32,000 nt of DNA. It comes from an uncultured Methanosarcinales archaeon (GTDB lineage Archaea > Nanobdellota > Nanobdellia > Woesearchaeales > JAHJBD01). Shown piece after piece: positions 6,457 to 22,088 of the stretch; within the stretch, counting starts at the first letter, position 1, and each line of letters begins with the position of its first letter. Under the pieces are notes generated by a model. That model was given only the letters and a program-made list of their open reading frames with translations, made no database searches and was not told the origin of the DNA. The stretch is taken from positions 1 through 32,000 of the forward strand of contig CAZHRT010000010.1 of the NCBI GenBank assembly GCA_964534665.1, read 5' to 3'. The position numbers and the translations under genes were made by a program.

Positions 6457-6680
6457 TTTCCCCTCGTATTACTTCCTAATAGAATTCCTGATAACACATT
6501 AAGTGCCCATGCTTGAAAAACATTTATAAAATATAATTTTCCAAAAACAAAGTTCCATAACCACATAACTGGAAATGCTAGAATTAAGCCAACTATTGCG
6601 CTTAATACTACAATAAGAAGCATTGTGTAGAAAAGATCTACAATCTTTTTTAAGACTGGAACTCTTTTTAATATCCCCAT
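6453..6680 (-). CDS. Small two-TM membrane protein (hypothetical)
   Basis: 75 aa with two clear hydrophobic helices (LLIVVLSAIVGLILAFPVMWLW and AWALNVLSGILLG). An AT-rich promoter-like region lies upstream. The alternative-frame ORF 6499-6699 was rejected. Confidence 0.5.
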   Translation of the reverse strand: MGILKRVPVLKKIVDLFYTMLLIVVLSAIVGLILAFPVMWLWNFVFGKLYFINVFQAWALNVLSGILLGSNTRGK

Positions 6681-6744
6681 GATTTATGTAAACACACACT
6701 TGTTTTTAAAGTTTTTGAAAAAAGATATAAATGAGTAGATATTA

Positions 6745-7137
6745 ATGGTTTTTATGAATATAACAAAGCACAGGGTTAGGTATGCAGACACTGATCATTT
6801 TGGGGTTGTGTATTATGCTCGTTATTTAGATTGGTTTGAAGCTGGTAGAACAGAAATTTTGCGTGATCAAGGAATTACATACGCCGATTTAGAAAAAAAA
6901 GGTATGTTTGCCCCTGTTGTTGAGATTAAAGTTGAATATAAGAAACCTGCTAAGTATGATGATGTAGTTGAATTAGAAACTACGATAGATAAGATAGGGA
7001 ATTCTAGTATTAAGTTTAATTATAAAGTATTTAATTCTAAAAAAGAATTGTTGTGTGAAGCGTATACAGTTAATGTGTTTATTGATAAAGATATGAAACC
7101 TGTAAGAATTCCAGATAATATTCGTGCTATTGAATAA
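6745..7137 (+). CDS. Acyl-CoA thioesterase, hotdog fold (YbgC/4HBT class)
   Basis: 130 aa. RVRYADTDHFGVVYYARYLDWFEAGRTEILR matches the catalytic-Asp N-terminal region of YbgC-type thioesterases. The start could be the second ATG, at 6757 (MNITKH...). Confidence 0.85.
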   Translation: MVFMNITKHRVRYADTDHFGVVYYARYLDWFEAGRTEILRDQGITYADLEKKGMFAPVVEIKVEYKKPAKYDDVVELETTIDKIGNSSIKFNYKVFNSKKELLCEAYTVNVFIDKDMKPVRIPDNIRAIE

Positions 7138-7792
7138 AAACATCCCCTTCAATAATTTTAATTTTCTTGTTGTCTTTTTTTATTATTAAGAATCCCTCAT
7201 TGTCTAGATTGTATGCAATACCTTCAAAGGTTTTGTTCATTGTTTTAACTTTTACTTTATCTCCGAGGAAAGAATATTTCTTCCAATCTTCAAAAATTTT
7301 CTTTTTATTTATCTTCTTTGTATAAGAATTAAGATTTTTAATTAATGATTTAAGGATATTTTCTTTGTTAATTTCTTTTTTTAAAATGGATTTTAAATTA
7401 GTTGATTTTGTATTTAGATGTAAAGGGGTTTTATTGTTTACATTAATTCCAATTCCCACAATAGTTTTATCTTCAAGGTTTGTAGTAAGGATACCGCAAA
7501 CTTTTTTCTTTTCATAATATAAATCATTTGGCCATTTGATAACTGTTTTTATTTTAGTTATTTCTTTTACTGCTTTATACGCTGCTAAACAGCCAATAAA
7601 AGTGTACAGTTGTGGTTGATCAATCTTAGGTAGAACTATTGATAAATAAATTCCCCCTTTATTAGAACTCCAGGTTCTCTTAAAGCGACCATGACCGTTA
7701 GCTTGGGTCTCAGCAATTAAAATAGAACCAATAGAATAATCTTTTGCTAAATCGTTTGTAGAACTAATTTGTTTAAATTTAAAAATTGTCAT
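7127..7792 (-). CDS. birA: Biotin--protein ligase (class I, no DNA-binding domain)
   Basis: 221 aa. GHGRFKRTWSSNKGGIYLS corresponds to the GRGRxGRxWxSxxGxxLyxS biotinyl-AMP loop, and KWPNDL is also present. It overlaps the accC stop region by 14 nt and converges on the thioesterase gene with an 11-nt overlap. Confidence 0.85.
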   Translation of the reverse strand: MTIFKFKQISSTNDLAKDYSIGSILIAETQANGHGRFKRTWSSNKGGIYLSIVLPKIDQPQLYTFIGCLAAYKAVKEITKIKTVIKWPNDLYYEKKKVCGILTTNLEDKTIVGIGINVNNKTPLHLNTKSTNLKSILKKEINKENILKSLIKNLNSYTKKINKKKIFEDWKKYSFLGDKVKVKTMNKTFEGIAYNLDNEGFLIIKKDNKKIKIIEGDVFIQ

Positions 7793-9668
7793 GATCCATT
7801 AATTCTCTCCTGCCAGACATTACCCATTCATTTGATTGTTGTTTAACAGGTTTTTTCTCGCCTAAATATTTAGTTACTGCAGTTGAGACTATAAGAAGTT
7901 TTTCTTTCTTAGTTAATTTTTTCTTAGTGCTCATAAAATTCTTGACCTCGTCTAAAATATTGTTTTTATCTATGAATGCTGTGGTAACATTGCCTTTGAT
8001 GAAATTATTGTTTCTTATAACTGCTTTATGGAAAGGGATTGTTGTATCTACTCCCTCTATAACATATTCATCTAATGCTCTTCGCATTCTAGATATTGCT
8101 TCCAATCTAGTTTTACCTCTACACATTAATTTAGATATCATTGAATCATAATGAGGGGAAATTATGTGGCCTGTATGTGAAGAAGAACAAATTCTTATAC
8201 CAGGGCCGCCAGGTGCGAGATAGTTAGTGATTGTTCCATTGGAAGGAACAAACTCTATAGGGGATTCTGCATTAATCCTACATTCGATTGCCCAACCATC
8301 AATTTTTATATCTTCTTGTTTAAATGCTAGTTTTGCTCCTGCAGCAATCTTTATTTGTTCTTTAATAAGATCAACACCTGTAATTAATTCGGTAACGCCA
8401 TGTTCAACTTGAATACGAGTATTCATTTCCATAAAATAGAATTTTTGATTTTTATCTAAAAGGAATTCAACTGTTCCTGCACCCTCATAACCTACAACTT
8501 CTCCAGCCTTGATTGCAATTTTACCCATCTCTTCACGCATGTTTGGTGTGATTGCTGGTGAAGGTGCCTCTTCTACTAGTTTTTGATGTCTTCTTTGTAT
8601 GCTACAGTCTCTTTCACCTAAATGGACCACATTACCGTAACGATCTGCGAGAATTTGGAACTCTATATGTTTTGGATCCTCAATAAATTTTTCCATGTAC
8701 ATTGAATCATCGCCAAAAGCAGCTCCAGCTTCTGTTTTTGCACTGTTAAATAAAGATTCTAAATCTTCTTTTTTGTATATGACTCTCATACCACGTCCGC
8801 CGCCGCCAGCTACTGCTTTAATAATAATGGGATACCCTATATTGTCTGCTAATTCCCTAGCATGTTCTGGTGTTTTTAGAAGGTCTTTTACACCTTCAAT
8901 AACTGGAACTTTTGCTTTTATCATAGTTGAACGGGCCTTACTCTTGTTCCCCATTAATTCCATTGCACGTGAAGAAGGGCCAATAAACTTAATCTTATTT
9001 TCTTCACACAATTTGGCAAAATTGGCGTTTTCAGAAAGAAAACCATATCCTGGATGAATTGCGTCTGCTTTAGCTTTTTTAGCAATCTTGATAATTTTCT
9101 TAAAATCAAGATATGCGTTTGGATTGCCTATATTATAGCTTTTATCAGCAAATTTTACAGCTAACCCATCTTTGTCTGGTTTTGAATAAATAACAGTAGT
9201 ATGAATCTTTAGTTCTTTACATGCACGAATAATCCTTAATGCAATTTCACCACGATTCGCAATTAAAACGTTCTTAAATGGCTTTTTATTTCCTAATTTA
9301 GTATAATCTCTTTCTTTAATCATATCAGGACTTAATCCTTTGGTTAACATATCAATGAATGATTTTGAAGAGTCTTCTTCAACAATCTTTTGAATTTTAT
9401 TAGAATCAAGATTTGGTAGTTTATCCATAACATTTTTTGTGATTAGGTTTGTAAAATCATCAATATTTGTTGAATTTGGTAAATGGTCTTCTTTTTCAAG
9501 ACTAATAAGGTGGGATTTAACAAGAGATTCAACTTTCTCATAAATATATGGCATTGAATCTTTAGTTGTTTTCATTAACTTTCTAACTAATTTTGCCCCT
9601 TTAGGTAAAGGTGAAAGTAGATGATTCAGAATCTTCTCAGTACGCCTTTTTTTCCTTCTTCTTGCCAT
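7779..9668 (-). CDS. accC: Biotin carboxylase (ATP-grasp) subunit with an unusual ~140-aa N-terminal extension
   Basis: 629 aa. The core starts near residue 141 (FKNVLIANRGEIALRIIRACKEL) and includes YPIIIKAVAGGGGRGMRV, EMNTRIQVEH and RINAE. The extension begins MARRRKKRRTEK, and there is also a ~60-aa C-terminal tail. Confidence 0.9.
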   Translation of the reverse strand: MARRRKKRRTEKILNHLLSPLPKGAKLVRKLMKTTKDSMPYIYEKVESLVKSHLISLEKEDHLPNSTNIDDFTNLITKNVMDKLPNLDSNKIQKIVEEDSSKSFIDMLTKGLSPDMIKERDYTKLGNKKPFKNVLIANRGEIALRIIRACKELKIHTTVIYSKPDKDGLAVKFADKSYNIGNPNAYLDFKKIIKIAKKAKADAIHPGYGFLSENANFAKLCEENKIKFIGPSSRAMELMGNKSKARSTMIKAKVPVIEGVKDLLKTPEHARELADNIGYPIIIKAVAGGGGRGMRVIYKKEDLESLFNSAKTEAGAAFGDDSMYMEKFIEDPKHIEFQILADRYGNVVHLGERDCSIQRRHQKLVEEAPSPAITPNMREEMGKIAIKAGEVVGYEGAGTVEFLLDKNQKFYFMEMNTRIQVEHGVTELITGVDLIKEQIKIAAGAKLAFKQEDIKIDGWAIECRINAESPIEFVPSNGTITNYLAPGGPGIRICSSSHTGHIISPHYDSMISKLMCRGKTRLEAISRMRRALDEYVIEGVDTTIPFHKAVIRNNNFIKGNVTTAFIDKNNILDEVKNFMSTKKKLTKKEKLLIVSTAVTKYLGEKKPVKQQSNEWVMSGRRELMDHDNF

Positions 9669-9812
9669 ATATGCTAGTGCTCATTTTGCTTTTTTAAAGC
9701 TTTTTATTATTGTCATGATATATAGAAATGTTTTTAAATGAACAACCCTTTTTCTTGCCTATAAAAGGGTGTTATATAAGCTTAAATATTAGGAGTTTTA
9801 GGAGGACAAAAA
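9669..9812. promoter_or_regulatory. Divergent promoter region between accC-birA and the fabZ-thiolase operon, containing an 8-bp inverted repeat next to a TATA-like box
   Basis: ACCCTTTT (9745-9752) pairs with AAAAGGGT (9763-9770) across a 10-nt spacer. TTATATAAG (9772-9780) follows immediately, about 33 nt before the fabZ ATG. A GGAGG motif (9800-9804) lies 8 nt upstream of that ATG. Confidence 0.45.
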
Positions 9813-10313
9813 ATGAAAACAATAGACGAACTTAAGAATGAAAAAGGAGAATTAGATATGAATGCGATTAAGCAGATTATTCCATATGAACATCCATTTT
9901 TAATGATTGATAAAGTAATTAGTGTTGATAAAAATAAGATAGTGGCAATAAAGAATGTTTCAGCTTCTGATGAATTCTTAAAAGGTCATTTTGCTGGATT
10001 TCCCATTATGCCGGGTGCATTAATGGTAGAAGGTATGGGGCAAGCAGCTACTTTGCTTATTAGATATAATCTTGAAGAACATTTCAAGAAAGATGTTCTA
10101 GCATTTAAAATAAAAGATGCTAAATTCACTGCACCAGCTTTTGCAGGTGATCAACTAGAGTATGAAGTTGTATTAATGGGCCAAGACGAAAGAGGTGCTT
10201 TAGTACAAGCTAAAGCTAAGAAAGAAGGAAATGTAATAGCTGAAGCTGGAATGATGCTTGCTGTTGTTGACAAAAAAGAATTTAGATCTCAACATAGTCC
10301 TGTTTATAAGTGA
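9813..10313 (+). CDS. fabZ: FabZ-like (R)-3-hydroxyacyl-thioester dehydratase (hotdog fold)
   Basis: 166 aa. IPYEHPFLMIDKV...KNVSASDEFLKGHFAGFPIMPGALMVEGMGQAA matches the FabZ catalytic His/Glu block (lPHRyPFLlvDrv...GHFP..PimPGvl.iEa.aQ). Confidence 0.85.
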   Translation: MKTIDELKNEKGELDMNAIKQIIPYEHPFLMIDKVISVDKNKIVAIKNVSASDEFLKGHFAGFPIMPGALMVEGMGQAATLLIRYNLEEHFKKDVLAFKIKDAKFTAPAFAGDQLEYEVVLMGQDERGALVQAKAKKEGNVIAEAGMMLAVVDKKEFRSQHSPVYK

Positions 10314-10318
10314 TTTAA

Positions 10319-11443
10319 ATGTATATAAAAGGGGTTGGAATGACCCAATTTAGTCTAGAAGATAGAAGCACTCATGCCATGGCTTTTGAAGCTGTGACAG
10401 GTGCATTGAAAGATGCAGACATGTCTATAAATGATGTTGAAGCTTGTGTTGTATCAACAGTTGATACTAATGCAAATGATGAAAAACAAAGGCATTATCC
10501 TTCTGTTGTTAGTTCTTTATTTAAGAAAAGAATCCCTATAATTAGGGTGCCTGCTGTTTGTGGTGGTGGTGGTGCAGCTTTATGGACAGCAAATAGATTA
10601 GGATATGATAATGTACTTGTTTTAGGAACAGATAAGATTGCTTGTAATAAAACAGGAGTAGTAACAAAAGAAATTTTAGGTGCTGCTGAAAGAGTTTATA
10701 GTCAAGAAGAAGGATTGGTTTTTCCTGCTGAGAATGCAATTCTTGCACAACAACATATGTTAAAATTTGGAACGACAACTGATGATTTAGCAGAAGTTGC
10801 TTTTAAGAATCATGAAAATGCATTTATTAATCCAAAAGCTAATTTTTATGGGAAAAAAGTAAGTCTTGAACAAATTAAGAATTCTCCTGTTGTTTCCTCA
10901 CCGTTTAGATTATTTGATTGTAGTATTAGTGTAAATGGAGCAGCAGCTGTTGTTTTATCCAAAGACAAAACAGATGTTAATATTGCAGGATCTGGATTTG
11001 CAACTGATTACTTGATGACTTTTGAAAGAGAAAGTATGGTTGAATTAAAAGCTACTAGATTAGCAGCTGAACAAGCTTATTCACAAGCAGGGATTAATGC
11101 TTCAGAGGTTAATGTTGCTGAGGTTCATGATGCTTTTACTATCTTAGAAATAATGGCATATGAAGATTTGGGTTTTTGTAAGAAAGGTGAAGGTGCTAAT
11201 TTAATAAGAAAAGGAATTGTTAAATTAGATGGTAAGATTCCTGTTAATACTAGTGGTGGGCTTAAAGCCAGAGGACATCCAATAAGTCCAACTGGATTAG
11301 CTCAGATTTATGAAATAGTTAAACAATTAAGAGGGGACTGTGGAGATAGACAGATTAGTTCACCAAAATATGGCCTTACTGAAAATAAAGGTGGTGTTGG
11401 TGCTTCAATCAGTGTTCACGTCCTTAAGAAGGTAGGTGGTTAG
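10319..11443 (+). CDS. Thiolase-fold acyl-CoA C-acyltransferase (archaeal/SCP-x-like type), paralogue 1
   Basis: 374 aa. The candidate nucleophile Cys is in IIRVPAVCGGGGAALW. AEVHDAFT and SGGLKARGHPISPTG are also present. Confidence 0.85.
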   Translation: MYIKGVGMTQFSLEDRSTHAMAFEAVTGALKDADMSINDVEACVVSTVDTNANDEKQRHYPSVVSSLFKKRIPIIRVPAVCGGGGAALWTANRLGYDNVLVLGTDKIACNKTGVVTKEILGAAERVYSQEEGLVFPAENAILAQQHMLKFGTTTDDLAEVAFKNHENAFINPKANFYGKKVSLEQIKNSPVVSSPFRLFDCSISVNGAAAVVLSKDKTDVNIAGSGFATDYLMTFERESMVELKATRLAAEQAYSQAGINASEVNVAEVHDAFTILEIMAYEDLGFCKKGEGANLIRKGIVKLDGKIPVNTSGGLKARGHPISPTGLAQIYEIVKQLRGDCGDRQISSPKYGLTENKGGVGASISVHVLKKVGG

Positions 11444-12566
11444 AGTGATTCAAAGATGGGTATGTAAAGCGTGTAATAAAAAATGGATTTATCCAGTTGA
11501 AAAATGTATTTATTGTGATGGACAAATAAGTAAAGAAGTTGGAACAAAGTTAAAAGTAATTGGAACTACAAAAGTTGCAATATCTTCTCCAGAACATCCA
11601 ATTATTCCTTATTTTACCATGATATTAGAAGACGAAAATGGTAATAGGATGCCTAAAAAAACAATGAGAGAATATCAAATTGGTGATGAGTTTAAATGGG
11701 AGAAAAGTGATGATGAAAGTGCTGTATCAATAATCAAGATAAAATATGATTATGATTTTGCTGTTAAGCAAGCTTTAGAATTGATAAATGATATTGAAGT
11801 TGGTAGTGAATCAAAAGTTTTAATCAAACCAAACATTATGTCGGCAGCTTATGCATATTTAGCAATTACCACAAATCCAAAAGTTGTAAGAGGTGTTGTA
11901 AATTACCTTGTTGGAAAAGGTGTTAAAAAAGAAAATATTACAATTGCTGAACAAGCACAGTTTTCTGAATTTGACAAAGCAATAACAAGATCAGGATTTA
12001 AGAAATTAGCTAAAGAATTAGGTGTTAAGTTAGTAGACCTAGCTACAACTGAATTTGTCGAAAAGGAAAGTGAAGGATTTAAGTTTAAAATTTCTAACTT
12101 GATGTATGAGAACAATGTGATAATTAATGTTCCTGTTATGAAAACACATTTATTGTTAGGAGTTTCTGGAGCATTAGAAAATATGACAAGGGTTGTTTCA
12201 TCTGACAATTATAAAGAAATCGCTAAAGATCCTGTAAAGGCTTTAGAAGCAATAGGCCATCTTCACAAGGTTTTGCCAAAGTATGTAACTGTTGGTGATG
12301 CAAGTATTGGTATGCAAGGTAATGGACCATTAAATTATGGTAATCCTGCTTTTCTTGATATGATACTTGCTAGTAAAGACCCTGTTGCACTAGATAAGAT
12401 ATTCCAAGAGATTGGTATGTTACGAAAAGTGCCACTTATTGAAACAGCTGAAAAGTTAGGAATTGGTTCTGCTGATTTAAGAGAGATTCCTGTTGTTGGT
12501 GATGAGCTTGATGCTTGCCGTAGGGAATTAATGCCAGCTATTGGTTCAAAATTAATTAAGATGTAA
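11436..12566 (+). CDS. Fusion protein: DUF35-like Zn-ribbon + OB fold (thiolase partner) joined to a DUF362-like domain
   Basis: 376 aa. The N-terminus has CKACNKKWIYPVEKCIYC (C-x2-C-x11-C-x2-C) and an OB-like segment LKVIGTTKVAISSPEHPIIPYFTMILEDENGNR...IGDEF. The C-terminal ~270 aa has VLIKPNIM, PVMKTHLLLGVSGALENM and DASIGMQGNGP, resembling DUF362 as I remember it. The start is GTG at 11436 or 11445, overlapping the thiolase stop. Confidence 0.6.
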   Translation: MVRVIQRWVCKACNKKWIYPVEKCIYCDGQISKEVGTKLKVIGTTKVAISSPEHPIIPYFTMILEDENGNRMPKKTMREYQIGDEFKWEKSDDESAVSIIKIKYDYDFAVKQALELINDIEVGSESKVLIKPNIMSAAYAYLAITTNPKVVRGVVNYLVGKGVKKENITIAEQAQFSEFDKAITRSGFKKLAKELGVKLVDLATTEFVEKESEGFKFKISNLMYENNVIINVPVMKTHLLLGVSGALENMTRVVSSDNYKEIAKDPVKALEAIGHLHKVLPKYVTVGDASIGMQGNGPLNYGNPAFLDMILASKDPVALDKIFQEIGMLRKVPLIETAEKLGIGSADLREIPVVGDELDACRRELMPAIGSKLIKM

Positions 12567-12569
12567 AAT

Positions 12570-13622
12570 ATGGTTGAAAAACAATTAATGAAAGGAAACG
12601 AAGCACTAGTTCATGCAGCTATAAAAGCTGGATGTACGTTTTATGCAGGTTATCCTATAACACCACAAAATGAGATTCCTGAAACAATGTCAAAATTAAT
12701 GCCTAAAGTTGATGGGGGAGTTTTTGTACAAGCTGAAGCTGAACTTTCTGCAATTAATATGATCTTTGGTGCTAGTGCTGCAGGGGTAAGGTGTATGACC
12801 TCATCTAGCAGTCCAGGAATTGCTTTAAAGCAAGAAGGCATATCTTATATTGCTGCTGCCGAATTACCTTGTGTGATAGTTAATATGGTTCGTGGTGGGC
12901 CTGGATTAGGGAATATTAATGCTTCACAAGCAGATTATTTTCAAGCTGTTAAAGGTGGTGGACATGGAGATTACAGATTGATTGTAATAGCACCTCATAC
13001 ATTACAAGAATTATATGACCTTACAATGAATTGTTTTGATTATGCTGATTATTATAGAAATCCTGTTTTAATATTGGGGGATGGTATTCTTGCACAGATG
13101 GTTGAACCAGTTGAATTGAAAGAATATGAAAAGATTTTGGATTTACCATCTAAAGATAATTGGACCTTGACTGGTTGTAAAGGAAGGAACCCCCATGTTG
13201 TTAAGACTTTATTGTTAGAACCTAGTGATTCATTGGCTAAGCATAATGTGCATCTTAAAGAGAAATATCAAAAGATAAGTAATGAGCTTTGTTTATGTGA
13301 AGAGTATAAAACAGAAGATGCTGACATATTGATTGTTGCTTATGGTATAACTGCAAGAGTTTGCAAAGAAGCTATTGATATTGCTCGTGATAGCGGTAAA
13401 AAAGTTGGGTTGATAAGGCCAATAACTTTGTGGCCATTTCCTAAAAAAATTCTATCTAAATATAAAGGAAAAGATTTCTTAGTTGTAGAGATGAGTAATG
13501 GACAGATGATTGAAGATGTTAAATTAAATTTAGAATGTCAAGGAAGATTTGAGTTTTTAGGTTGTGGTGGTGGATGGTATCCTGATACAAAACAGATATT
13601 GGAGAAATTAAATGGAATGTAA
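12570..13622 (+). CDS. 2-oxoacid:ferredoxin oxidoreductase, alpha subunit
   Basis: 350 aa. GNEALVHAAIKAGCTFYAGYPITPQNEI and the later PGIALKQEG...VRGGPGLG are typical of Por/Kor/Vor alpha subunits. Confidence 0.85.
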   Translation: MVEKQLMKGNEALVHAAIKAGCTFYAGYPITPQNEIPETMSKLMPKVDGGVFVQAEAELSAINMIFGASAAGVRCMTSSSSPGIALKQEGISYIAAAELPCVIVNMVRGGPGLGNINASQADYFQAVKGGGHGDYRLIVIAPHTLQELYDLTMNCFDYADYYRNPVLILGDGILAQMVEPVELKEYEKILDLPSKDNWTLTGCKGRNPHVVKTLLLEPSDSLAKHNVHLKEKYQKISNELCLCEEYKTEDADILIVAYGITARVCKEAIDIARDSGKKVGLIRPITLWPFPKKILSKYKGKDFLVVEMSNGQMIEDVKLNLECQGRFEFLGCGGGWYPDTKQILEKLNGM

Positions 13623-13642
13623 CGATTATAATACATTAAAAG
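13610..13642 (+). repeat. Left copy of the duplicated korA/korB junction (relic korB start)
   Basis: AAATGGAATGTAA (13610-13622) matches AAATGAAGTGTAA (15751-15763) at 11 of 13 positions. ACATTAAAAG (13633-13642) is identical to 15765-15774. Read from the ATG at 13612, it encodes MECNDYNTLK, compared with the real KorB N-terminus MKCKTLK. Confidence 0.55.
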
Positions 13643-13649
13643 TATATAG

Positions 13650-14606
13650 GTGTATACTGTGGTAATAGCACTAGTAACTGGTGGGGCAGGATTTATTGGG
13701 AGCCATTTAGTAGAAGATTTAGTTGAGAAAGGATATCAAGTAAAAGTTATTGATAGTTTAATTAAAGGTAAAAGTGCAACAATTCAAAAGTTAATTGATC
13801 AAGGTAAAGTTGAATTTTTTGAAGGAGATATAAAAAATAGGGATAGTGTTGATAAAGCTATGAAGAATGTAGATTATGTTTTTCATACTGCAGGTACACA
13901 TATAATTAATTGTGGTAAAAGTCCGGAAGATGCAATTGAGTGTAATGTTCATGGAAGTTACAATGTGTTCAAATCTGCATTAGATAATAATGTTAAAAGG
14001 GTAATTTTTAGTTCAAGTTCAAGCATATATGGGGAACCAAAAAGTTTACCTATGTCTGAAGATAGTGAACTGAATATTGTAGAACCCTATGCTGCAAGCA
14101 AACAAATGGCTGAACATCTATTGAAATTTTTGGGAACTAAAGGATTGAAATATAATATATTAAGATATTTTAATGTTTATGGCTCAAGACAAGCTGTGCA
14201 TGCTTACTATACAACTGTCGTGATAGATTTTATTAATAAATTGATGAATGATGAATCACCAATTATTAACGGAAAAGGTGATCAAAGTCTAGACTTTACA
14301 CATGTAAGTGATGTTGTAAAAGGAAATATAGCTGCAGCTGAATCTACGGTTGAGAATGAAATATTTAATATTGGAACTGGACAAAGTACATCTATTGCTG
14401 ATCTTGCAAAAATGATTATCAAAACTTTAGGTAAAGATATTGAACCCAGATTTAGGGATAGAAAAGTTTTGGTAACAAGAAAAAAAGCTGACACAATTAA
14501 AGCTGAAAAAATACTTGGATTTAAATCTCAAGTTTCTATTGAAGAAGGTATAGCAAAAATTACTAAAGAAATTGCTGAGAATCCTGAATTATATAAAGGT
14601 AGATAA
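13650..14606 (+). CDS. NAD-dependent nucleotide-sugar epimerase/dehydratase (extended SDR)
   Basis: 318 aa with TGGAGFIGSHL and the YAASK catalytic pair. The start may instead be the GTG at 13659, in which case the GGTG spanning 13649-13652 would serve as its RBS. Confidence 0.85.
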   Translation: MYTVVIALVTGGAGFIGSHLVEDLVEKGYQVKVIDSLIKGKSATIQKLIDQGKVEFFEGDIKNRDSVDKAMKNVDYVFHTAGTHIINCGKSPEDAIECNVHGSYNVFKSALDNNVKRVIFSSSSSIYGEPKSLPMSEDSELNIVEPYAASKQMAEHLLKFLGTKGLKYNILRYFNVYGSRQAVHAYYTTVVIDFINKLMNDESPIINGKGDQSLDFTHVSDVVKGNIAAAESTVENEIFNIGTGQSTSIADLAKMIIKTLGKDIEPRFRDRKVLVTRKKADTIKAEKILGFKSQVSIEEGIAKITKEIAENPELYKGR

Positions 14607-14608
14607 GA

Positions 14609-15763
14609 ATGCTAGAAATAAATGATAAGATATGGAAAATTCCTTTATTCCAAACGTATTGGGATGAAAATGATGTTGAAGCTATTAATGAAGTAGTTAG
14701 AAGGGGGAGCTCCTGGGCAACTGGACCTGAGGTTGTCGAGTTTGAAAAAAAAATCGCTGAATTTAATGAAAGAAAATATGCTTTGGCTTTTAATTCTGGA
14801 ACAAGTGCTTTGCATGCAATGTTGCTTGCATATGATGTTAAAGGTAAAGAAGTAATTGTACCCTCATTTACTTTTATTGCTACGGCAAATGCAGTTGTAT
14901 TAGCTGGTGGAAAGCCAATTTTTGCTGAATCTGAAGATGAAACATTTGGATTAGATGCAGAAGATGTTTTATCTAGAATAAATAAAAATACTGCTGCAAT
15001 CTTAACTTTAAACTATGGTGGAGGAGTTTCAAAAGATATTGAAAAATTAAAGCAGATTGCTGATGAGAAAAACATATTATTACTAGAAGACAATGCACAT
15101 TCTTTTGGTGTAAAGAAAAATGGTAAAATGTGTGGAACATTTGGGCAAGCAGCTGCATTAAGCTTTTGTCAGAATAAACTAATAACTACTGGTGAAGGTG
15201 GTGCTGTGGTTACAGATGATGAAAAAATATTTGAAAAAATTAAGTTGATTAAAAGCCATGGAAGAATTAAAAATTCTAAAGAAGATTTTTCATCAATTAA
15301 AAATTATGGGTATGTGGAAGTGGGTTATAATTATAAGATACCTACAATGGGGGCGGCTTTAGGACTCTCACAACTTAATAAATTTGAAAAAATAATGAAT
15401 TTAAGAATTGAAGCTGGAACAAGATTAAATGATGGGATAAAAGAATTTGTTAAAGTATCTGAACCTTATGAAAATTCTGACCACTTTTTTCAAAAATATA
15501 CTATTATGCTTAATAATAATGAAACCAGAGATAAACTACAATTATTTTTAAGAGATAAAGGCATAATGAGTAAAGTTTACTATGAACCTATCCATCTAGA
15601 AAATATTTATAGAGATAATTATGGTTATAAAGAAGGGGATTTGCCTAAAACAGAAGCAATGTCTAAGAAAATCCTTACCTTGCCTATGTGGCCAGGTATT
15701 TCAAATAATGATATAGATTATATAATTAATTCAATCAAGGAGTTTTTTAAAAATGAAGTGTAA
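14609..15763 (+). CDS. DegT/DnrJ/EryC1-family PLP-dependent sugar aminotransferase
   Basis: 384 aa with NSGTSALHAMLLA, DNAHSFG and SFCQNKLITTGEGG (PLP lysine context). Its last 11 nt overlap the korB start. Confidence 0.85.
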   Translation: MLEINDKIWKIPLFQTYWDENDVEAINEVVRRGSSWATGPEVVEFEKKIAEFNERKYALAFNSGTSALHAMLLAYDVKGKEVIVPSFTFIATANAVVLAGGKPIFAESEDETFGLDAEDVLSRINKNTAAILTLNYGGGVSKDIEKLKQIADEKNILLLEDNAHSFGVKKNGKMCGTFGQAAALSFCQNKLITTGEGGAVVTDDEKIFEKIKLIKSHGRIKNSKEDFSSIKNYGYVEVGYNYKIPTMGAALGLSQLNKFEKIMNLRIEAGTRLNDGIKEFVKVSEPYENSDHFFQKYTIMLNNNETRDKLQLFLRDKGIMSKVYYEPIHLENIYRDNYGYKEGDLPKTEAMSKKILTLPMWPGISNNDIDYIINSIKEFFKNEV

Positions 15764-15774
15764 GACATTAAAAG
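15751..15774 (+). repeat. Right copy of the duplicated korA/korB junction (functional korB start)
   Basis: See the left copy at 13610-13642. The DegT C-terminus (KNEV-stop) mirrors the KorA C-terminus (LNGM-stop) at the nucleotide level. Confidence 0.55.
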
Positions 15775-16481
15775 ATGATGGGATGCATTATTGTCCTGGT
15801 TGTGGGCATACTCAAGTGCATAGAATGATTGCTGATCTAATTGATGAATTAGGTATCCGAGAAAAAACTATTGCTTCTGCACCAGTTGGTTGTGCAGTAT
15901 TATTTTATAATTATTTTAATGTTGATGTTATTGAATGTGCACATGGTCGTGTTCCTGCTGTCATGGGCGCTATAAAAAAAGTTAATCCTGATAAGTTTGT
16001 TTTATGTTACCAAGGGGATGGTGATTTAGCGGCAATTGGTACAACTGAAACAATACATACTGCTAACCGTGGAGAAAACTTAACTGTTATTTTTATCAAT
16101 AATGCAATTTATGGTATGACTGGTGGTCAAATGGCACCTACAACTTTACCAGGACAAATTACAACTACAACACCAAAAGGAAGAGGGAATAATAATGAAG
16201 GATTACCTCTTAAGGTTTGTGAATTATTAAGCGTACTTGGAGGTCCAACATACATTGAAAGATGTGCAGTAAATAGTGCTGAGAATATGAAGAAAACTAA
16301 AGAAGCCATCAAAAAAGCAATTCAATGCCAATTAGAAGGTAAAGGTTATAGTTTTATAGAGATATTGTCTGGCTGTCCAACCAACTGGAAAGTTAGTGTA
16401 AAAGATTCTATTGGCTTTATTGATAAGATGATTGAATATTTCCCATTAGGTGTTTTCAAGGATGTAAGAAATGAGAGATGA
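15753..16481 (+). CDS. 2-oxoacid:ferredoxin oxidoreductase, beta (TPP-binding) subunit
   Basis: 242 aa with YCPGCGH and YQGDGDLAAIGTTETIHTANRGENLTVIFINNAIYGMTGGQ (TPP/Mg site). Confidence 0.9.
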   Translation: MKCKTLKDDGMHYCPGCGHTQVHRMIADLIDELGIREKTIASAPVGCAVLFYNYFNVDVIECAHGRVPAVMGAIKKVNPDKFVLCYQGDGDLAAIGTTETIHTANRGENLTVIFINNAIYGMTGGQMAPTTLPGQITTTTPKGRGNNNEGLPLKVCELLSVLGGPTYIERCAVNSAENMKKTKEAIKKAIQCQLEGKGYSFIEILSGCPTNWKVSVKDSIGFIDKMIEYFPLGVFKDVRNER

Positions 16482-17001
16482 AATTAAGATAGCAGGTTAT
16501 GGTGGACAAGGGGTTGTCTTAGCTGGAAGTTTGATAGCTAACACTGCAATGCGTCAAGGATTGTATACTTGCGGCATGGTATCTTATGGTGCTGAAATGA
16601 GGGGAGGAACAGCAAACTCAACTGTAATAGTAAGTGATAAACCAATAAGTAGCCCAATTGTTATAATGCCAAATGTTGTATTAATATTAAATGAACCTTC
16701 TCTTAAGAAATTTGAAGAGAGTGTAGAAAAAGGTGGTGTTATAATTATTAATACATCAGAATGTAAGAAAAAAGTTTCTAGACAAGATATTGAAATTGTT
16801 GAGGTTGCTGCAACAGATGCTGCAGTAGAACTGGGAAATAAGAAAGTTACAAATATGGTCATGGTTGGAGCATATATTAAGAAAAAAGGTTCAATAAGAT
16901 TAGAAGAAGCCATAAAGAATCTAGATGTTGTAATCAAGAGAAAAGAATTGATTGATATTAATAAAAAAGCTTTGGAAAAAGGTGGGGAATTATGTATGTA
17001 A
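16471..17001 (+). CDS. 2-oxoacid:ferredoxin oxidoreductase, gamma subunit
   Basis: 176 aa. IKIAGYGGQGVVLAGSLIA is typical of the gamma subunit/domain. It overlaps korB by 11 nt and the next thiolase by 10 nt. No delta (2x[4Fe-4S]) subunit gene is present in the window. Confidence 0.85.
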   Translation: MRDEIKIAGYGGQGVVLAGSLIANTAMRQGLYTCGMVSYGAEMRGGTANSTVIVSDKPISSPIVIMPNVVLILNEPSLKKFEESVEKGGVIIINTSECKKKVSRQDIEIVEVAATDAAVELGNKKVTNMVMVGAYIKKKGSIRLEEAIKNLDVVIKRKELIDINKKALEKGGELCM

Positions 17002-18128
17002 AAGGTGTTGGTTGTACACCATATAGGATTCATGAGAAAAAATCACATATGTTAGCTTATGATGCGATTAGTCAAGCCTTAAAAGATGCTGATACGTCTT
17101 TAGATAAGATTGATGGTATTGTTTGTAGTACGTTAGAATGGTTTTTTACTGAGGAAAATCAAAGACATTTTGCTGCAATGCTTTCTGGTTTGTTAAAAAC
17201 TAATAAACCAATAATAAGGGTGCCTGCTGCTTGTGCTGGAGGGGGAACAGCCTTATGGACAGCTAATAAAATGGGATTTGATAATGTATTGGTTGTTGGT
17301 GTTGAAAAACTACATGGACATACAAGAAATACTGATATGATTACAAAAGAATTTGGTATGGCTGCTGAATCTAAATGGGAGCAAACTGAAGGTGTTAATT
17401 TTCCTGGAGAAAATGCTTTAGTTGCACAAGCATACCTTAACAAATTTCCCGAAACAACTATGAATGATCTTGCTTTGATATCGTTAAAGAATCATGAAAA
17501 TGCTTTTTTAAATCCTAATGCTTATTTTTATGGGAAAAAAGTTAACTTGGATCAAATTAAGAATTCACCAATAATAACTTCGCCATTAAGATTATTTGAT
17601 TGTAGTGTAAGTGTTGATGGGGCTGCAGCTGTTGTTTTATCTAAAGATAAAACAGATGTTAAAATTGCAGGGTCATCATTATGTTCTGATTACCTTCCGC
17701 CTTTTGAAAGGGATGATATGACAACATGGGAAGGAACATTAAGAACTGGCAATGAAGTTTTTGAGCAAACAGGTTTAGAAAGAAGTGAGATTGATTTTGC
17801 TGAATTACATGATGCTTTTACAATAGTTGAACTATTAACATACGAAGATCTTGGTTTTTGTAAGAAAGGGGAAGCGTATAAAATGATTAGGGATGGTAGA
17901 TTTAAGATTGATGGAAAGATGCCTGTAAATGTTTCTGGTGGATTAAAAGCTAAAGGGCATCCTGTTTCTGCAACTGGTCTTGGAATGATATATGAGATTG
18001 TTAAACAAATACGTGGTGAATCTGGTGATAGACAAATTAGTAAAACTAGAAATGCGCTTGCCCATAATATTGGTGGAGCAGGTGGTACAACCGCCGTACA
18101 CATACTAAAGAAAATTGGAGGGGTTTAA
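16992..18128 (+). CDS. Thiolase-fold acyl-CoA C-acyltransferase, paralogue 2
   Basis: 378 aa, roughly 55-60% identical by eye to the protein at 10319-11443. Shared blocks include IIRVPAACAGGGTALWTAN, NHENAF, YGKKV, LRLFDCSVSVDGAAAVVLSKDKTDVKIAGS, YEDLGFCKKGE and SGGLKAKGHP. No DUF35 partner is adjacent. Confidence 0.85.
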   Translation: MYVKGVGCTPYRIHEKKSHMLAYDAISQALKDADTSLDKIDGIVCSTLEWFFTEENQRHFAAMLSGLLKTNKPIIRVPAACAGGGTALWTANKMGFDNVLVVGVEKLHGHTRNTDMITKEFGMAAESKWEQTEGVNFPGENALVAQAYLNKFPETTMNDLALISLKNHENAFLNPNAYFYGKKVNLDQIKNSPIITSPLRLFDCSVSVDGAAAVVLSKDKTDVKIAGSSLCSDYLPPFERDDMTTWEGTLRTGNEVFEQTGLERSEIDFAELHDAFTIVELLTYEDLGFCKKGEAYKMIRDGRFKIDGKMPVNVSGGLKAKGHPVSATGLGMIYEIVKQIRGESGDRQISKTRNALAHNIGGAGGTTAVHILKKIGGV

Positions 18129-18875
18129 ATGGAAGACTTAAAAGGTAAAACTGCATTAATAACTGGTGGTTCTCAAGGTATAGGTAAAGCTATTGCTATA
18201 GCAATGGCAAAAGAGGGTGCTAATATTATTATCAATGATATTGAACCTGCAAAAGAAGGGGCTGAAGCAACAGTTGCTGAATTAAAAGAATTTGGTGTTG
18301 ATGCTATGGCAGCTTATGCAGATGTTTCAGATTTTGAACAAGTTAAATCTATGGTTGAACAAATTAAAGAAAAATTCCCAGTAATTAATGTATTGGTAAA
18401 TAATGCAGGAATAACTAAAGATAGAACATTAAAAAAGATGACTCCTGAAGAATGGAATGCTGTAATAAATGTTAATCTTAATTCAATCTATAATGTAACG
18501 CATAATGTTTTGGGGCTTATACCTGAAGGTGGTTCGATTATATCTTTATCTTCTATTGCTGGAGTTGGAGGAAATTTTGGACAGTGCAATTATGCATCAA
18601 CTAAAGCCGGGATTATTGGATTTACAAAGTCTCTTGCAAAAGAGTTAGGAAAAATGAAGATTACTGTTAATGCGATTGCCCCAGGATTTATCAAAAGTAA
18701 GATGACTGATAAAATCCCTGTAATGATGCTTGATCAAATATTGGACTTAATACCTTCAAAAGAGATGGGACAGCCTGAAGATGTTGCTAATTTAGCAGTG
18801 TTTTTGGCATCTAATAAGGGTAAATATGTAAATTCTCAAGTAATCAGAGTAGATGGCGGCATGATGTTTGGTTGA
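18129..18875 (+). CDS. fabG: 3-oxoacyl-thioester reductase, classical SDR (FabG / PhaB acetoacetyl-CoA reductase type)
   Basis: 248 aa with TGGSQGIGKAIA, NNAGIT and S...YASTKAG. The segment KKMTPEEWNAVINVNLNSIYNVTHNV resembles CoA-dependent PhaB at least as much as ACP-dependent FabG. Confidence 0.9.
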   Translation: MEDLKGKTALITGGSQGIGKAIAIAMAKEGANIIINDIEPAKEGAEATVAELKEFGVDAMAAYADVSDFEQVKSMVEQIKEKFPVINVLVNNAGITKDRTLKKMTPEEWNAVINVNLNSIYNVTHNVLGLIPEGGSIISLSSIAGVGGNFGQCNYASTKAGIIGFTKSLAKELGKMKITVNAIAPGFIKSKMTDKIPVMMLDQILDLIPSKEMGQPEDVANLAVFLASNKGKYVNSQVIRVDGGMMFG

Positions 18876-18927
18876 GTACAATAAACTTTAAATAGGGTTT
18901 TTATTTACCTTCTTTAGGGGATATAAC

Positions 18928-20082
18928 TTGGATTTTAATTATACTAAAAAACAATTAATGCTTTACCACACTATTAGGAATTTTGTAGAGAAAGAAATTA
19001 TTCCTTATGCTCAAGATATTGATCATGAAGAAATATTTCCAATCGAACAAATTAAGAAATTAGCTAAGATGGGCGTTATGGGGATGTCTATACCTAAAAA
19101 GTATGGTGGGGCTGAACTTGATAATGTTTCTCAAACTATAATTATGGAAGAAGTTAGTCGTGCTTGTGCTTCAACTTCTGTTACAATGGGGGCACATACT
19201 TCTTTATGTTGTTATCCAATTGTAAATCATGGTACTAATGCTCAAAAAGAAAGGTGGTTACCTAAACTTGCTTCAGGCGAGTGGTTAGGTGCTTTTGCGC
19301 TTACAGAACCAAATGCTGGTTCTGATGCTGTTAATGTACAAACAACTGCTGTTAGAGATGGAGACGATTACATAATTAATGGTAACAAAGTTTTTATTAC
19401 AAATGGTGGAAAATGTGATTTTGTTCCAATTGTTTGTACAACTGATCCTTCTGCTAAACATAAGGGATTAGCTATTTTTGGGATTGAAACAAAAAATACT
19501 CCAGGATTTAAAGTTGGGAAGAAAGAGGATAAGCTGGGTTTAAGAGGTTCAAATACTTGTGAACTTGTGTTTGAAGATATGCGTGTTCCAAAAGAAAATT
19601 TAGTTAGTGGTAAAGAAGGCGAAGGCTTTAAGATTTCTATGGGTGTATTTAATTCTGGAAGGATTGGAATTGGAGTACAGGGTGTTGGAATTGCACAAGC
19701 AGCATTTGATGAATGTATGAAATATGTTAGTGAAAGAGAACAGTTTGGAAGGCCTTTAAAGAAATTTCAAGCTATACAGTTTCAGATGGCTGAAATGGCA
19801 ACTAAAATTGAAGCTGCTCGTTTATTATGTTTGAAAGCTGCACATGTAAAAGATCAAGGTAAAAATTATATCAAACATGCTGCAATGGCTAAATATTATG
19901 GAAGCGATGTTTCAATGGAAGTTACAAGACAAGCTATACAAATACATGGTGGTTATGGTTATATGAAAGATTATCCATTAGAAAGATTTTACAGAGATGC
20001 AAAGATTACTGAGATTTATGAAGGTACAACAGAAATCCAAAAATTAGTTATTGGAAATGAATTGTTTGGGAGAGGTTTTTAA
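18928..20082 (+). CDS. Acyl-CoA dehydrogenase (short-chain/butyryl-CoA dehydrogenase-like)
   Basis: 384 aa with GAFALTEPNAGSDA, ITNG and IYEGTTEIQ. It uses a TTG start with GGGGA 7 nt upstream. Confidence 0.9.
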   Translation: MDFNYTKKQLMLYHTIRNFVEKEIIPYAQDIDHEEIFPIEQIKKLAKMGVMGMSIPKKYGGAELDNVSQTIIMEEVSRACASTSVTMGAHTSLCCYPIVNHGTNAQKERWLPKLASGEWLGAFALTEPNAGSDAVNVQTTAVRDGDDYIINGNKVFITNGGKCDFVPIVCTTDPSAKHKGLAIFGIETKNTPGFKVGKKEDKLGLRGSNTCELVFEDMRVPKENLVSGKEGEGFKISMGVFNSGRIGIGVQGVGIAQAAFDECMKYVSEREQFGRPLKKFQAIQFQMAEMATKIEAARLLCLKAAHVKDQGKNYIKHAAMAKYYGSDVSMEVTRQAIQIHGGYGYMKDYPLERFYRDAKITEIYEGTTEIQKLVIGNELFGRGF

Positions 20083-20085
20083 TGA

Positions 20086-20131
20086 CTCAAAAATTCTTTT
20101 TTGAGGGATTGGAAATCACCAAAGGTGATTT
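20086..20131 (+). promoter_or_regulatory. Two consecutive stem-loops in the 52-nt acd-etfB spacer; the second covers the etfB RBS
   Basis: CTCAAAAA-TTCT-TTTTTGAG (20086-20105) begins 4 nt after the acd stop. AAATCACC-AAA-GGTGATTT (20113-20131) follows, and its GGTGA lies 6 nt upstream of the etfB ATG at 20135. Confidence 0.4.
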
Positions 20132-20134
20132 TCA

Positions 20135-20917
20135 ATGAACATCATTGTTTGTGTAAAACAAGTACCTGATACAAATGATATTAAGATTGATCCTGTTAAA
20201 GGGACTTTAATTAGAGAGGGAGTTCCATCAATTATCAATCCAGAAGATAATAATGCTATTGAGGCGGCTTTGCAAATAAAAGGTGAAGGTAAAGTTACTG
20301 TTCTTTCAATGGGGCCACCACAAGCTGAAGAAGCTTTAAGGGAAGCTATTGCAATGGGTGTTGATGAAGCTATTCTTGTCTCAGATTTTAAGTTTGCTGG
20401 TTCTGATACATGGGCAACTGCAAATGTATTGGCAAGTGCTGTTAAGAAATTAGACTATGACCTAATAATTTGTGGAAGGCAAGCAATTGATGGGGATACT
20501 GCACAAGTGGGTCCCCAATTAGCTGAAAATTTGGGTTTACCACAAATCACTTATGTTCAAAAAATTGAAGTTGGAGAGGGTGTATTAAAAGTTCAAAGAG
20601 CTCTTGAAGATGGATATGAAATAATAGAAGGAAAGTTGCCTGTTTTAATAACCGTAGTAAAAGAAATTAACAATCCAAGATATCCAACATTACAAGGAAT
20701 TGATAAAGCTTATGAAACTGATATTATTAAATGGACAGCAGATGATATTGAAGCAGATCCTGCAAAAATTGGACTTAAAGGTTCTCCAACACATGTAAAA
20801 AAGAGTTTTGTTCCTCCTGGAAAAGGCCAAGGAATAAAATTAGATGGACCTACTAAAGATATTGCAAAACAATTAATTGGAATCTTAAAAGAAAAAGAGA
20901 TTATCCAAGAATTTTAA
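20135..20917 (+). CDS. etfB: Electron-transfer flavoprotein, beta/small subunit (bifurcating-type signature)
   Basis: 260 aa with MNIIVCVKQVPD and GRQAIDGDTAQVGPQLAENLGLPQITYV. Confidence 0.9.
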   Translation: MNIIVCVKQVPDTNDIKIDPVKGTLIREGVPSIINPEDNNAIEAALQIKGEGKVTVLSMGPPQAEEALREAIAMGVDEAILVSDFKFAGSDTWATANVLASAVKKLDYDLIICGRQAIDGDTAQVGPQLAENLGLPQITYVQKIEVGEGVLKVQRALEDGYEIIEGKLPVLITVVKEINNPRYPTLQGIDKAYETDIIKWTADDIEADPAKIGLKGSPTHVKKSFVPPGKGQGIKLDGPTKDIAKQLIGILKEKEIIQEF

Positions 20918-20918
20918 A

Positions 20919-22088
20919 ATGGTAAAAATAAAATTAACTGATAATTATCCTGGATCAACACTTACAATAGATGGTGTTATGCTTAGTTTAGGAGATGATT
21001 TTGTTGATGTTGAGAAATCATTAGATTTACAGCAAGCACTTAATAATGGTTATGTTGAAATTCAAGAAGAAAAAGAAGAGAATAAAGTTGAGGAAGTAAA
21101 AGAAGGTGAAGAAGTTTGGATTTTTGCAGAACAGCGTGCAGGAAAATTTGCTAGAGTTGCACTTGAGCTTTTAGGAAAAGCACGTGAGTTAGCAGATCAT
21201 CAAGGTGTTAAAGTTGGTGCTTTGTTATTATGTGATAAAGATTGCGGATTATCCTCAGAATTAATTTCTAGGGGTGCAGATAAAGTTTATCTAGCTGAAT
21301 CTGAGAAATTTAAGAATTATGAAACTTTAAATTTTACTAAAACTATTTGTGAAATTATAAATAAAGAAAAACCTCAAATTGTAATATATGGTGCAACACA
21401 TATTGGTAGAGATTTAGCACCAAGAATTGCTCAAAGGATTGCAACTGGTTTAACTGCTGATTGTACTGGTTTAAACATTGATGAAGATGGTTTATTGATA
21501 CAAACAAGGCCTGCTTTTGGTGGGAACTTAATGGCTGAAATTAAATGTCCTGAACATAAACCTCAAATGTCTACTGTAAGACCAGGTATTATGAAAATGC
21601 TTGACAAGACAGAAAGAGAAGGTTCTGTTGTTAAATGTGAAATTTCACTTGAGGAAGATGATAGAATCAAAGTTTTAGAAGTAATTAAAGAAACTAGGAA
21701 AGTTGCTAATCTTGAAGAAGCTGAAATAATTGTGTCTGGTGGACGAGGTGTTGGAAGTCCTGAAAATTTTAAACTTATTGAAGAGTTAGCAAAAGAGTTG
21801 GGTGCTGAGATTGGAGCGTCACGTGCAGTTATTGATGCTGGTTGGGTTCCAAAAGATCATCAAGTTGGACAAACAGGTAAAACAGTAACACCAAAATTAT
21901 ATTTGGCTTGTGGAATTTCTGGTGCTATTCAGCATAGGGCTGGAATGCAAAATTCTGATACAATTGTTGCTATTAATAAAGATCCTAATGCGATGATTTT
22001 TTCTGTTGCTGATTATGGCATTGTTGGTGATTTAAACAAGGTTATTCCGGCTTTAATTGAAGAGCTTAAGAATGGCAAAACTTTATAA
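20919..22088 (+). CDS. etfA: Electron-transfer flavoprotein, alpha/large subunit with a ~65-aa Cys-free N-terminal extension
   Basis: 389 aa. The canonical EtfA begins at VWIFAEQRAGKFARVALELLGKAREL. The C-terminal FAD domain shows SGGRGVGS, ASRAVIDAGW and QVGQTGKTVTPKLYLACGISGAIQH. Confidence 0.9.
   Translation: MVKIKLTDNYPGSTLTIDGVMLSLGDDFVDVEKSLDLQQALNNGYVEIQEEKEENKVEEVKEGEEVWIFAEQRAGKFARVALELLGKARELADHQGVKVGALLLCDKDCGLSSELISRGADKVYLAESEKFKNYETLNFTKTICEIINKEKPQIVIYGATHIGRDLAPRIAQRIATGLTADCTGLNIDEDGLLIQTRPAFGGNLMAEIKCPEHKPQMSTVRPGIMKMLDKTEREGSVVKCEISLEEDDRIKVLEVIKETRKVANLEEAEIIVSGGRGVGSPENFKLIEELAKELGAEIGASRAVIDAGWVPKDHQVGQTGKTVTPKLYLACGISGAIQHRAGMQNSDTIVAINKDPNAMIFSVADYGIVGDLNKVIPALIEELKNGKTL

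Follow-up and report, generated by a model that had tools for sequence, protein, structure and literature searches.

The operon for a three-subunit 2-oxoacid:ferredoxin oxidoreductase (OFOR) of a DPANN archaeon is split, between its alpha and beta genes (korA and korB), by a 2.1-kb piece of DNA with two sugar-modification genes. The operon lies in a stretch of 32,000 nucleotides (nt) of contig CAZHRT010000010.1, hereafter called the window. According to the list of open reading frames (ORFs) and Pfam, its gene order is OFOR alpha, an epimerase/dehydratase of the short-chain dehydrogenase/reductase (SDR) type, a DegT aminotransferase, OFOR beta and OFOR gamma, as an earlier note, made from the letters of this DNA, had described it. 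It is well supported that both genes of this piece, or cassette, are amino-sugar genes native to the organism, which came into a conserved cluster of lipid-type genes either as a copy or by relocation, and equally that the insertion site was the overlap of 4 to 14 nt between the alpha and the beta gene. The overall explanation, which we consider likely, is that the organism's own amino-sugar genes were inserted into the korA/korB overlap by a template switch that duplicated the flanks, and that the operon is read through the insert. Coordinates are given in Table 1.

The six closest relatives of KorB (73 to 82% identity), all from metagenome-assembled genomes (MAGs) of Nanoarchaeota or Woesearchaeota, were found by protein search; a contig scan with KorB gave only bacterial loci (54 to 63% identity). 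The order FabA-thiolase-DUF362-KorA-KorB-KorG-thiolase-FabG was present in 6/6 of these relatives, and in every one of them korA and korB were adjacent and overlapping, by 14 nt in L088 (GCA_018813725.1), by 8 nt in L091, L093 and L095, and by 4 nt in L097 and L099. Among the more distant bacterial loci, korA, korB and korG were contiguous in 76 of 80, and nothing intervened in any of the 80. The uninterrupted arrangement that the earlier note expected in related genomes does exist, and the korA/korB overlap that it took to be ancestral was indeed found. Since korA and korB are uninterrupted and overlapping in all six relatives, the split in the window is, by sequence comparison, the derived state. 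The database held no KorB protein between 82% and 100% identity and no DegT or epimerase protein between 77% and 100%, and the interrupted form is therefore known from one species.

Where the two genes overlap, beta contains the stop of alpha and alpha contains the start of beta, so that both genes stay whole only if the overlap is present to the left as well as to the right of the insert afterwards. A plain insertion into the overlap loses either the korA stop or the korB start, yet both genes of the window are full length; the overlap must therefore exist twice. Indeed, a copy was found at either end of the cassette. The 3' end of korA reads ...GAG AAA TTA AAT GGA ATG TAA, the left copy is AAATGGAATGTAA C GATTATAAT ACATTAAAAG, and the right copy is AAATGAAGTGTAA G ACATTAAAAG. 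The two match at 11/13 plus 10/10 positions with a 9-nt in-frame indel, just as first described, although the position of the indel is ambiguous and an ungapped alignment of TAATACATTAAAAG with TAAGACATTAAAAG (13/14) is also possible.

The left copy has the features of a former korB start. A relic ATG stands at the ancestral position within the end of korA, with GGAG at -11, and is followed by TGTAA and then by ACATTAAAAG, which is kept in the spacer behind korA and which occupies korB codons 5 to 8 in the window, in L088 and in L095. The corresponding junctions read ...ATAT ATG GAA GAA GTT AAG ACA TTA AAA GG in L088 (KorB MEEVKTLK) and ...AAAA ATG GTT AAA ACA TTA AAA GA in L095 (KorB MVKTLK). 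TGTAA, with the Cys codon at KorB position 3, is a derived feature that the two copies of the window share; the junctions of the six relatives all lack it, L088 and L095 having GTTAA instead, and its presence in both copies points to a duplication within this lineage. The geometry is preserved as well, the overlap of degT and korB (ATGAAGTGTAA) and that of the relic and korA (ATGGAATGTAA) both being 11 nt. With 36 nt, the spacer between korA and the epimerase gene is the largest gap from FabA to FabG, and all others are overlaps or at most 5 nt long. If the junction was duplicated, the uninterrupted ancestral form would be expected to read ...AAATG(A/G)A(A/G)TGTAAGACATTAAAAG... It is well supported that the korA stop was kept on the left and is followed by a decaying korB stub (ATG..TGTAA..ACATTAAAAG), and that the real korB start lies inside the end of degT on the right. 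In these respects (the relic start behind korA and the preserved overlap geometry of korB) the proposal of the earlier note was supported.

Two observations concern the same place. The mini-ORF that opens with the relic ATG overlaps the end of korA by 11 nt and the epimerase gene by 7 nt, ending 4 nt past the GTG start codon. Possibly it hands ribosomes from korA to the epimerase gene, or it is there by chance; an open frame of 17 codons is not unusual and, by a rough estimate, arises by chance in about 1 of 5 cases. The C-terminus of KorA in the window (..EKLNGM) is 3 residues shorter than in L093 (..QKLNDIKNE) and L095 (..DKIKEIKNG), and the end of korA may have been remodelled when the cassette arrived or afterwards.

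The end of degT had also been taken for a mirror of the end of korA (KNEV-stop against LNGM-stop), and here the claim stood in part. The C-termini of DegT homologues are IKEFFKND, IQDFFKNK and IKDFFEND, so that the tail KEFFKN is DegT's own. Moreover, AAGGAGTTTTTTAAAAATGA of the window is identical at 20/20 positions to the degT 3' end of L104, a locus of a related sugar cluster; that end reads AAGGAGTTTTTTAAAAATGATTAA, and its embedded ATG starts the next gene, a CMP-transferase. We also considered the whole tail KEFFKNEV as a copy of a KorA tail KEIKNE and rejected it, because DegT homologues end alike. What does look target-derived are the last two codons and the stop: degT is two codons longer in the window than in L104 and ends at a TAA equivalent to the korA stop. 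The DegT C-terminus is probably composed of a native K-N and a target-derived E-V-stop (GAA GTG TAA, against GAT TAA in L104), and the AAATGA of the right copy may be donor-derived.

The relatives' korA genes end in AAAAATGA (L091 and L093) or AAAAATGG (L095). The degT 3' end and the korA/korB overlap, two unrelated boundaries, thus have 8 to 9 nt in common, with AAAAATG(A/G) present in both degT 3' ends and the relatives' korA 3' ends. The right joint lies within this shared stretch, and beyond it the window reads as korB (AAG TGT AAG ACA...). A scan with AAGGAGTTTTTTAAAAATGAB for donor-type loci gave 32 matches, none of them at a degT 3' end; the sole weak DegT match (L124, 29% identity) was encoded at another position of its contig, on the other strand. 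Since the matches were generic ribosome-binding sites before unrelated genes, the 20-mer is a canonical module of Shine-Dalgarno motif and ATG and no marker of the donor.

The mechanism, as far as the scar reveals it, was probably microhomology-mediated. A template switch during replication or repair would be the most economical route. Synthesis would have covered about 22 to 31 nt of korB, switched to the sugar locus at a point ahead of the epimerase gene, continued to the end of degT and returned by the microhomology AAAAATG(A/G) to the korB start, whereby the skipped-back segment would have been duplicated. At the degT 3' end this microhomology natively holds the Shine-Dalgarno motif and the start codon of the next sugar gene. 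After the switch, degT would terminate where korA had once ended, two codons beyond the end of a homologue. The same event could have taken another path, either short-homology (Campbell-type) recombination of a circular or linear copy or capture of the copy at a staggered double-strand break that was filled in. The flanking direct repeat of about 22 to 31 nt, the shared AAAAATG and the lack of mobile-element genes are all compatible with these paths, and they are inseparable from template switching by sequence alone. A circle, however, would have to carry about 22 nt of korB, which nothing suggests, and breaks staggered by over 20 nt are uncommon; we regard these paths as somewhat unlikely.

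If the junction repeat were a coincidence of AT-rich DNA, the cassette would still have been inserted but the relic would be none; the korA stop and the korB start would then have been preserved or formed anew without a true duplication, for instance if korA and korB of the immediate ancestor did not overlap. The DNA has 31.6% GC, and dozens of chance repeats of 15 to 20 nt were found in the 4.6-kb region; we therefore relied on position-specific tests. The flanking repeat itself was absent from the top families of a general repeat search, because the indel splits it. At the pre-specified place, an exact word of 10 nt shared by the spacer behind korA (36 nt) and the opening 36 nt of korB had a P value of 0.0013 when compared with real 36-mers of the window and of 0.0022 under a Markov-1 model, and when the spacer was matched with all 32 genes of the window, korB was best with 10 nt and the runner-up reached 8. 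Gapped local alignment of the two 61-nt junctions gave a score of 30.5 (P = 0.003 to 0.004 against random pairs), but when real gene starts of the window were paired with one another, 8 of the 190 pairs (about 4%) scored as high, because starts in this genome look alike. Chance also gains from the part of the right copy (AAATGA) that is native to degT. Taken alone, the repeat is suggestive without being decisive, and it convinces only jointly with the comparative data: in L088 and L095 the 10-mer occupies identical korB codons, TGTAA is common to the two window copies and missing from the junctions of the six relatives, and with an overlap in 6/6 relatives a duplication is logically required for two intact genes. 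A chance origin of the relic is accordingly improbable.

Where did the cassette come from? The closest match of the epimerase was P0242 (76.8% identity) and that of DegT was P0122 (75.9%). Both are proteins of the MAG GCA_018813725.1, which also holds the closest uninterrupted kor cluster (L088) and is called the sister MAG below. Eight flanking proteins were 70 to 88% identical between the window and this MAG, so that the cassette genes have diverged as much as vertically inherited genes. The composition of the cassette, a point on which the earlier note had wanted a comparison with the neighbours, proved ordinary: its GC content is 0.303, and GC content at third codon positions, relative synonymous codon usage and 4-mer distance were all inside the spread of the window. 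A foreign origin by composition was therefore rejected, and the cassette is, judged by identity and composition, native, or else a very close relative supplied it.

In the sister MAG the genes belong to a sugar cluster. One contig (L102) carries UDP-glucose dehydrogenase, a NadE-like protein, the epimerase and the start of a formyltransferase at the contig end; another (L100) carries the end of a formyltransferase, DegT, NeuB and a gene of the AP-endonuclease fold, with P0122 between formyltransferase and NeuB. In other MAGs, L103 has the order epimerase, hexapeptide acyltransferase, DegT; L101 has the same order with an SDR that corresponds in size and Pfam profile (the comparison did not include its identity to the window epimerase); and L104 has hexapeptide acyltransferase and DegT. 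NeuB and/or a CMP-transferase are close by in L103 and L104. In the sugar clusters of four relatives, degT is thus immediately preceded by an N-acyltransferase gene of the formyl or hexapeptide type, which stands between degT and the epimerase gene where both are visible. In the window (14604-14635) epimerase and degT are 2 nt apart, and DegT has 7 extra N-terminal codons (MLEINDK, against MTWKIPLF in the sister MAG). The degT ATG stands at the position of the sister's formyltransferase ATG, a hint that the acyltransferase gene was deleted in frame; this loss could have come about by a second template switch or by a separate deletion.

A mobile element or a distant horizontal transfer, with the repeat as target-site duplication, is a very improbable source of the cassette. 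Two genes between direct repeats do fit such an origin. However, the insert encodes only the epimerase and DegT, without transposase or integrase, and no inverted pair with arms near 13643 and 15750 was found, in line with the earlier note, which had seen neither transposase nor inverted repeats. In addition, the composition is native, the divergence from the sister MAG equals that of the flanks, and a duplication of 22 to 31 nt is longer than the usual target duplications of transposons. Mobile elements exist in the clade, as seen from a DDE transposase gene (DDE_Tnp_1) in L097 (7063-7977), about 1.6 kb beyond the FabG-like gene with which the uninterrupted cluster closes there, though none is present at the insertion in the window.

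It is barely credible that the interrupted order is ancestral and that the relatives deleted the cassette between the direct repeats. Direct repeats can mediate precise deletion, but the six relatives (KorB 73 to 82%) and 76/80 bacterial loci are uninterrupted, the relatives' epimerase and DegT orthologues stand in sugar clusters, and the interrupted form occurs in one species only. An assembly or binning artefact that joined a sugar contig to the OFOR operon is a negligible possibility, since no point in its support was found and identical contigs came from different samples and assemblers. An identical KorB protein was recorded in 30 blocks of the collection, and 24 of the contigs concerned were read. 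Seven loci, from assemblies of JGI, ENA and Logan, were 100% identical to the window over 7 to 12.7 kb, and 6/7 spanned both joints, the seventh (L006) starting inside degT and covering the right joint only. The contigs with KorB and DegT reach lengths of 217,766 nt, L002 stems from one of 137,430 nt, and the sampling sites include those of JGI 3300022912 and 3300028174, ERZ27245997 and SRR7265442. Seven independent assemblies with 100% identity show that the locus is no chimera.

Several points weigh against the explanation that we prefer. No microhomology was recognisable at the left joint, in a comparison without a donor locus from this genome, and template switching would be one of several mechanisms that yield a flanking duplication. 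The repeat is short, and the share of real gene starts that score as high has been given above. The pre-insertion target is reconstructed rather than observed, because no such allele and no relative of 82 to 100% identity was found; a search of JGI metagenome contigs for GGAGAAATTAAATG-N4-34-GATGGGATGCATTATTGTCC gave 0 matches, which is uninformative since exact anchors were required. Finally, a scan for promoters and terminators gave counts at the level of shuffled sequence, with bacterial-type models that are ill-suited to archaea.

Insertion of the organism's own sugar genes into the duplicated overlap would have consequences for expression. The spacings around the cassette genes are operon-like (+36, +2 and -11 nt), and the sugar genes are presumably now read as part of the lipid/OFOR operon. 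Most genes in this region have GGAG, GGTG or GAGG at about -10 to -12, and korB has GGAG at -14, within degT. The korB start lies upstream of the degT stop, which is the geometry of a coupled pair, and initiation at korB is probably still coupled to the end of translation on the preceding ORF, a place now taken by degT.

The OFOR genes encode alpha, beta and gamma subunits with the domains expected of the family. KorA matched PF01855 (4.9e-51) and PF17147 (2.6e-21), as expected of an OFOR alpha subunit, was 77.9% identical to the L088 orthologue and passed the NCBIfam model NF005507 of the VorB subfamily, which stands for 3-methyl-2-oxobutanoate dehydrogenase (512 bits, cut-off 399); because of the latter, "kor" is used as a loose, provisional name. 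KorB has the thiamine pyrophosphate-binding domain (PF02775, 4.7e-19) and the N-terminal Cys motif of a beta subunit, the motif MHYCPGCGH being shared with the relatives, and was 81.4% identical to its L088 orthologue; the NCBIfam beta-subunit models stayed below their equivalog cut-offs. KorG matched the gamma domain PF01558 (1.7e-36) and passed TIGR02175 (95.6 bits, cut-off 81.1). By its family assignment the enzyme may use branched-chain 2-oxoacids or pyruvate, not 2-oxoglutarate, and could feed acyl-CoA primers to the adjacent lipid genes.

Both cassette genes are unremarkable representatives of their families, DegT and extended SDR, and neither reaches an equivalog cut-off. The epimerase has the full Epimerase domain (PF01370, 3e-57) and the Rossmann motif GxxGxxG of extended SDRs, with TGGAGFIG at the N-terminus; its top NCBIfam matches, LegB and GalE, were both under the cut-off. 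Its likely start is the GTG at 13659, preceded by AGGTG, rather than the mechanical ORF start at 13650, because independent gene calls use this GTG and the N-terminus then aligns with the homologues. DegT has a full-length pyridoxal phosphate-dependent DegT domain (PF01041, 5e-101, residues 19-376 of 384). Its relatives of solved structure include QdtB and perosamine synthetase (1e-49 to 1e-52), and its PseC score was 271 bits against a cut-off of 423.

Table 1. Features of the interrupted OFOR operon and of its surroundings (positions in the window)
Feature	Coordinates	Strand	Remarks
korA, OFOR alpha (VorB-like)	12570..13622	+	Pfam POR_N and PFOR_II; stop codon 13620-13622
Left junction copy	13610..13642	+	korA stop 13620-13622; relic korB ATG 13612, followed by TGTAA, an additional 9 nt (about 13624-13632) and ACATTAAAAG (13633-13642)
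Relic mini-ORF	13612..13665	+	MECNDYNTLKVYRCILW-stop, 17 codons; GGAG at -11
Left end of insert, epimerase leader	13643..13658	+	AGGTG, Shine-Dalgarno-like motif, 13648-13652; likeness to korB stops at 13642
Epimerase/dehydratase, extended SDR (cassette gene 1)	13659..14606	+	GTG start; Pfam Epimerase
degT, DegT/PseC-like sugar aminotransferase (cassette gene 2)	14609..15763	+	Pfam DegT; stop 15761-15763
Right junction copy	15751..15774	+	Functional korB start ATG 15753 overlaps degT stop 15761-15763 by 11 nt; GGAG 15737-15740
korB, OFOR beta	15753..16481	+	Pfam TPP_enzyme_C
korG, OFOR gamma	16471..17001	+	Pfam POR
Conserved cluster, upstream part	9813..12566	+	FabA-like dehydratase, thiolase, DUF362; order repeated in L088, L091, L093 and L099
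Conserved cluster, downstream part	16992..18875	+	Second thiolase, FabG-like SDR; order repeated in relatives

The host is a DPANN archaeon: RadA, RadB, RPA and an archaeal-type S2 are encoded in the window, and the nearest proteins are named Nanoarchaeota or Woesearchaeota. From 4408 to 24357 the window of this archaeon holds a long lipid cluster of the bacterial type, the OFOR genes included. On the same strand as the FabA-like dehydratase, thiolase, DUF362, OFOR alpha, the cassette, OFOR beta and gamma, thiolase and FabG follow acyl-CoA dehydrogenase, EtfB, EtfA, two PlsC-type acyltransferases and the glycerol-3-phosphate dehydrogenase GpsA; parts of an acyl-CoA carboxylase and a biotin ligase lie upstream, and a thioesterase also belongs to the cluster. 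GpsA in Woesearchaeota has been mentioned before (PMC6431249). This cluster is the more important biology nearby and is only partly known from the literature.

Three further observations were made in the window. The DUF362 protein (11445-12566), whose gene is just upstream of OFOR alpha in all close relatives, has about 120 extra N-terminal residues with a zinc-ribbon-like CxxC...CxxC motif (WVCKACNKKWIYPVEKCIYCDG) and no CxxCxxCxxxC ferredoxin motif; perhaps it is a partner of the OFOR or the thiolase. The biotin carboxylase (7779-9668) has 629 residues, about 130 of them ahead of Biotin_carb_N; the long form is also found in L091 (629 residues) and L093 (634 residues), and that of the sister MAG (L088 1042-2544) has 500 residues. 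At the right end of the window (28669-31730), two ORFs of 801 and 221 residues lie on the minus strand.

The locus is a natural example of how an operon of overlapping genes takes in outside genes without loss of function; the overlap has to flank the insert left and right, and here the scar can still be read. It is also a dated, species-level rearrangement in a DPANN archaeon, whose nearest database genome keeps the uninterrupted target and, apart from it, the likely donor-type sugar cluster. Since gene pairs without any relation can show microhomology in their start/stop overlaps, a testable idea for the reshuffling of operons follows. In its general form, which we find quite doubtful, the overlap module of Shine-Dalgarno motif, ATG and stop may serve these small, AT-rich archaeal genomes as a transferable joint by which operons are shuffled: overlapping pairs that are not related would have AAAAATGA in common, and template switching or short-homology recombination would move whole genes in frame with their expression signals intact. 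If this were true, the locus would be a case, caught in the act, of a general route of operon evolution. Less likely still, the sugar genes might have been functionally recruited, for example for an aminated or glycosylated lipid head group made with the neighbouring GpsA and PlsC genes, and the mini-ORF behind korA would then couple translation of the epimerase to that of korA. Our literature search on the duplication of gene overlaps found nothing directly relevant.

Compared with known operons of three- or four-subunit 2-oxoacid:ferredoxin oxidoreductases (korAB(G), vorABC/porABCD), the operon of the window has the same alpha-beta-gamma order and all three domain sets, but two sugar genes with no relation to the enzyme stand between alpha and beta, which was seen in 0/86 related loci, and it resides in a cluster of fatty-acid/lipid type. 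The cassette genes resemble the nonulosonic-acid (legionaminic- or pseudaminic-like) clusters of Nanoarchaeota/Woesearchaeota MAGs, in which their closest homologues were found (62 to 77% identity; both epimerase and DegT in L100/L102 and L103, DegT also in L101 and L104). They differ in that epimerase and degT are directly adjacent, without a formyl- or hexapeptide N-acyltransferase gene between them and without NeuB or CMP-transferase nearby. With a transposon insertion the locus shares the direct repeats of the target around the insert; of three defining features, however, the transposase and the inverted repeats are lacking, the repeat of 22 to 31 nt is imperfect with a 9-nt indel, and the cargo is native. 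The locus also resembles scars of illegitimate recombination and the template-switch scars of microhomology-mediated break-induced replication and of fork stalling and template switching (MMBIR/FoSTeS). To our knowledge, a mechanism of this type has not been shown in DPANN archaea; in the window it is read from the scar only, and no microhomology is recognisable at the left joint. The likeness lies in the native insert, the lack of mobile genes, the short target duplication and the microhomology at one joint. The scar is a well documented case of a known kind of rearrangement and no new molecular system.

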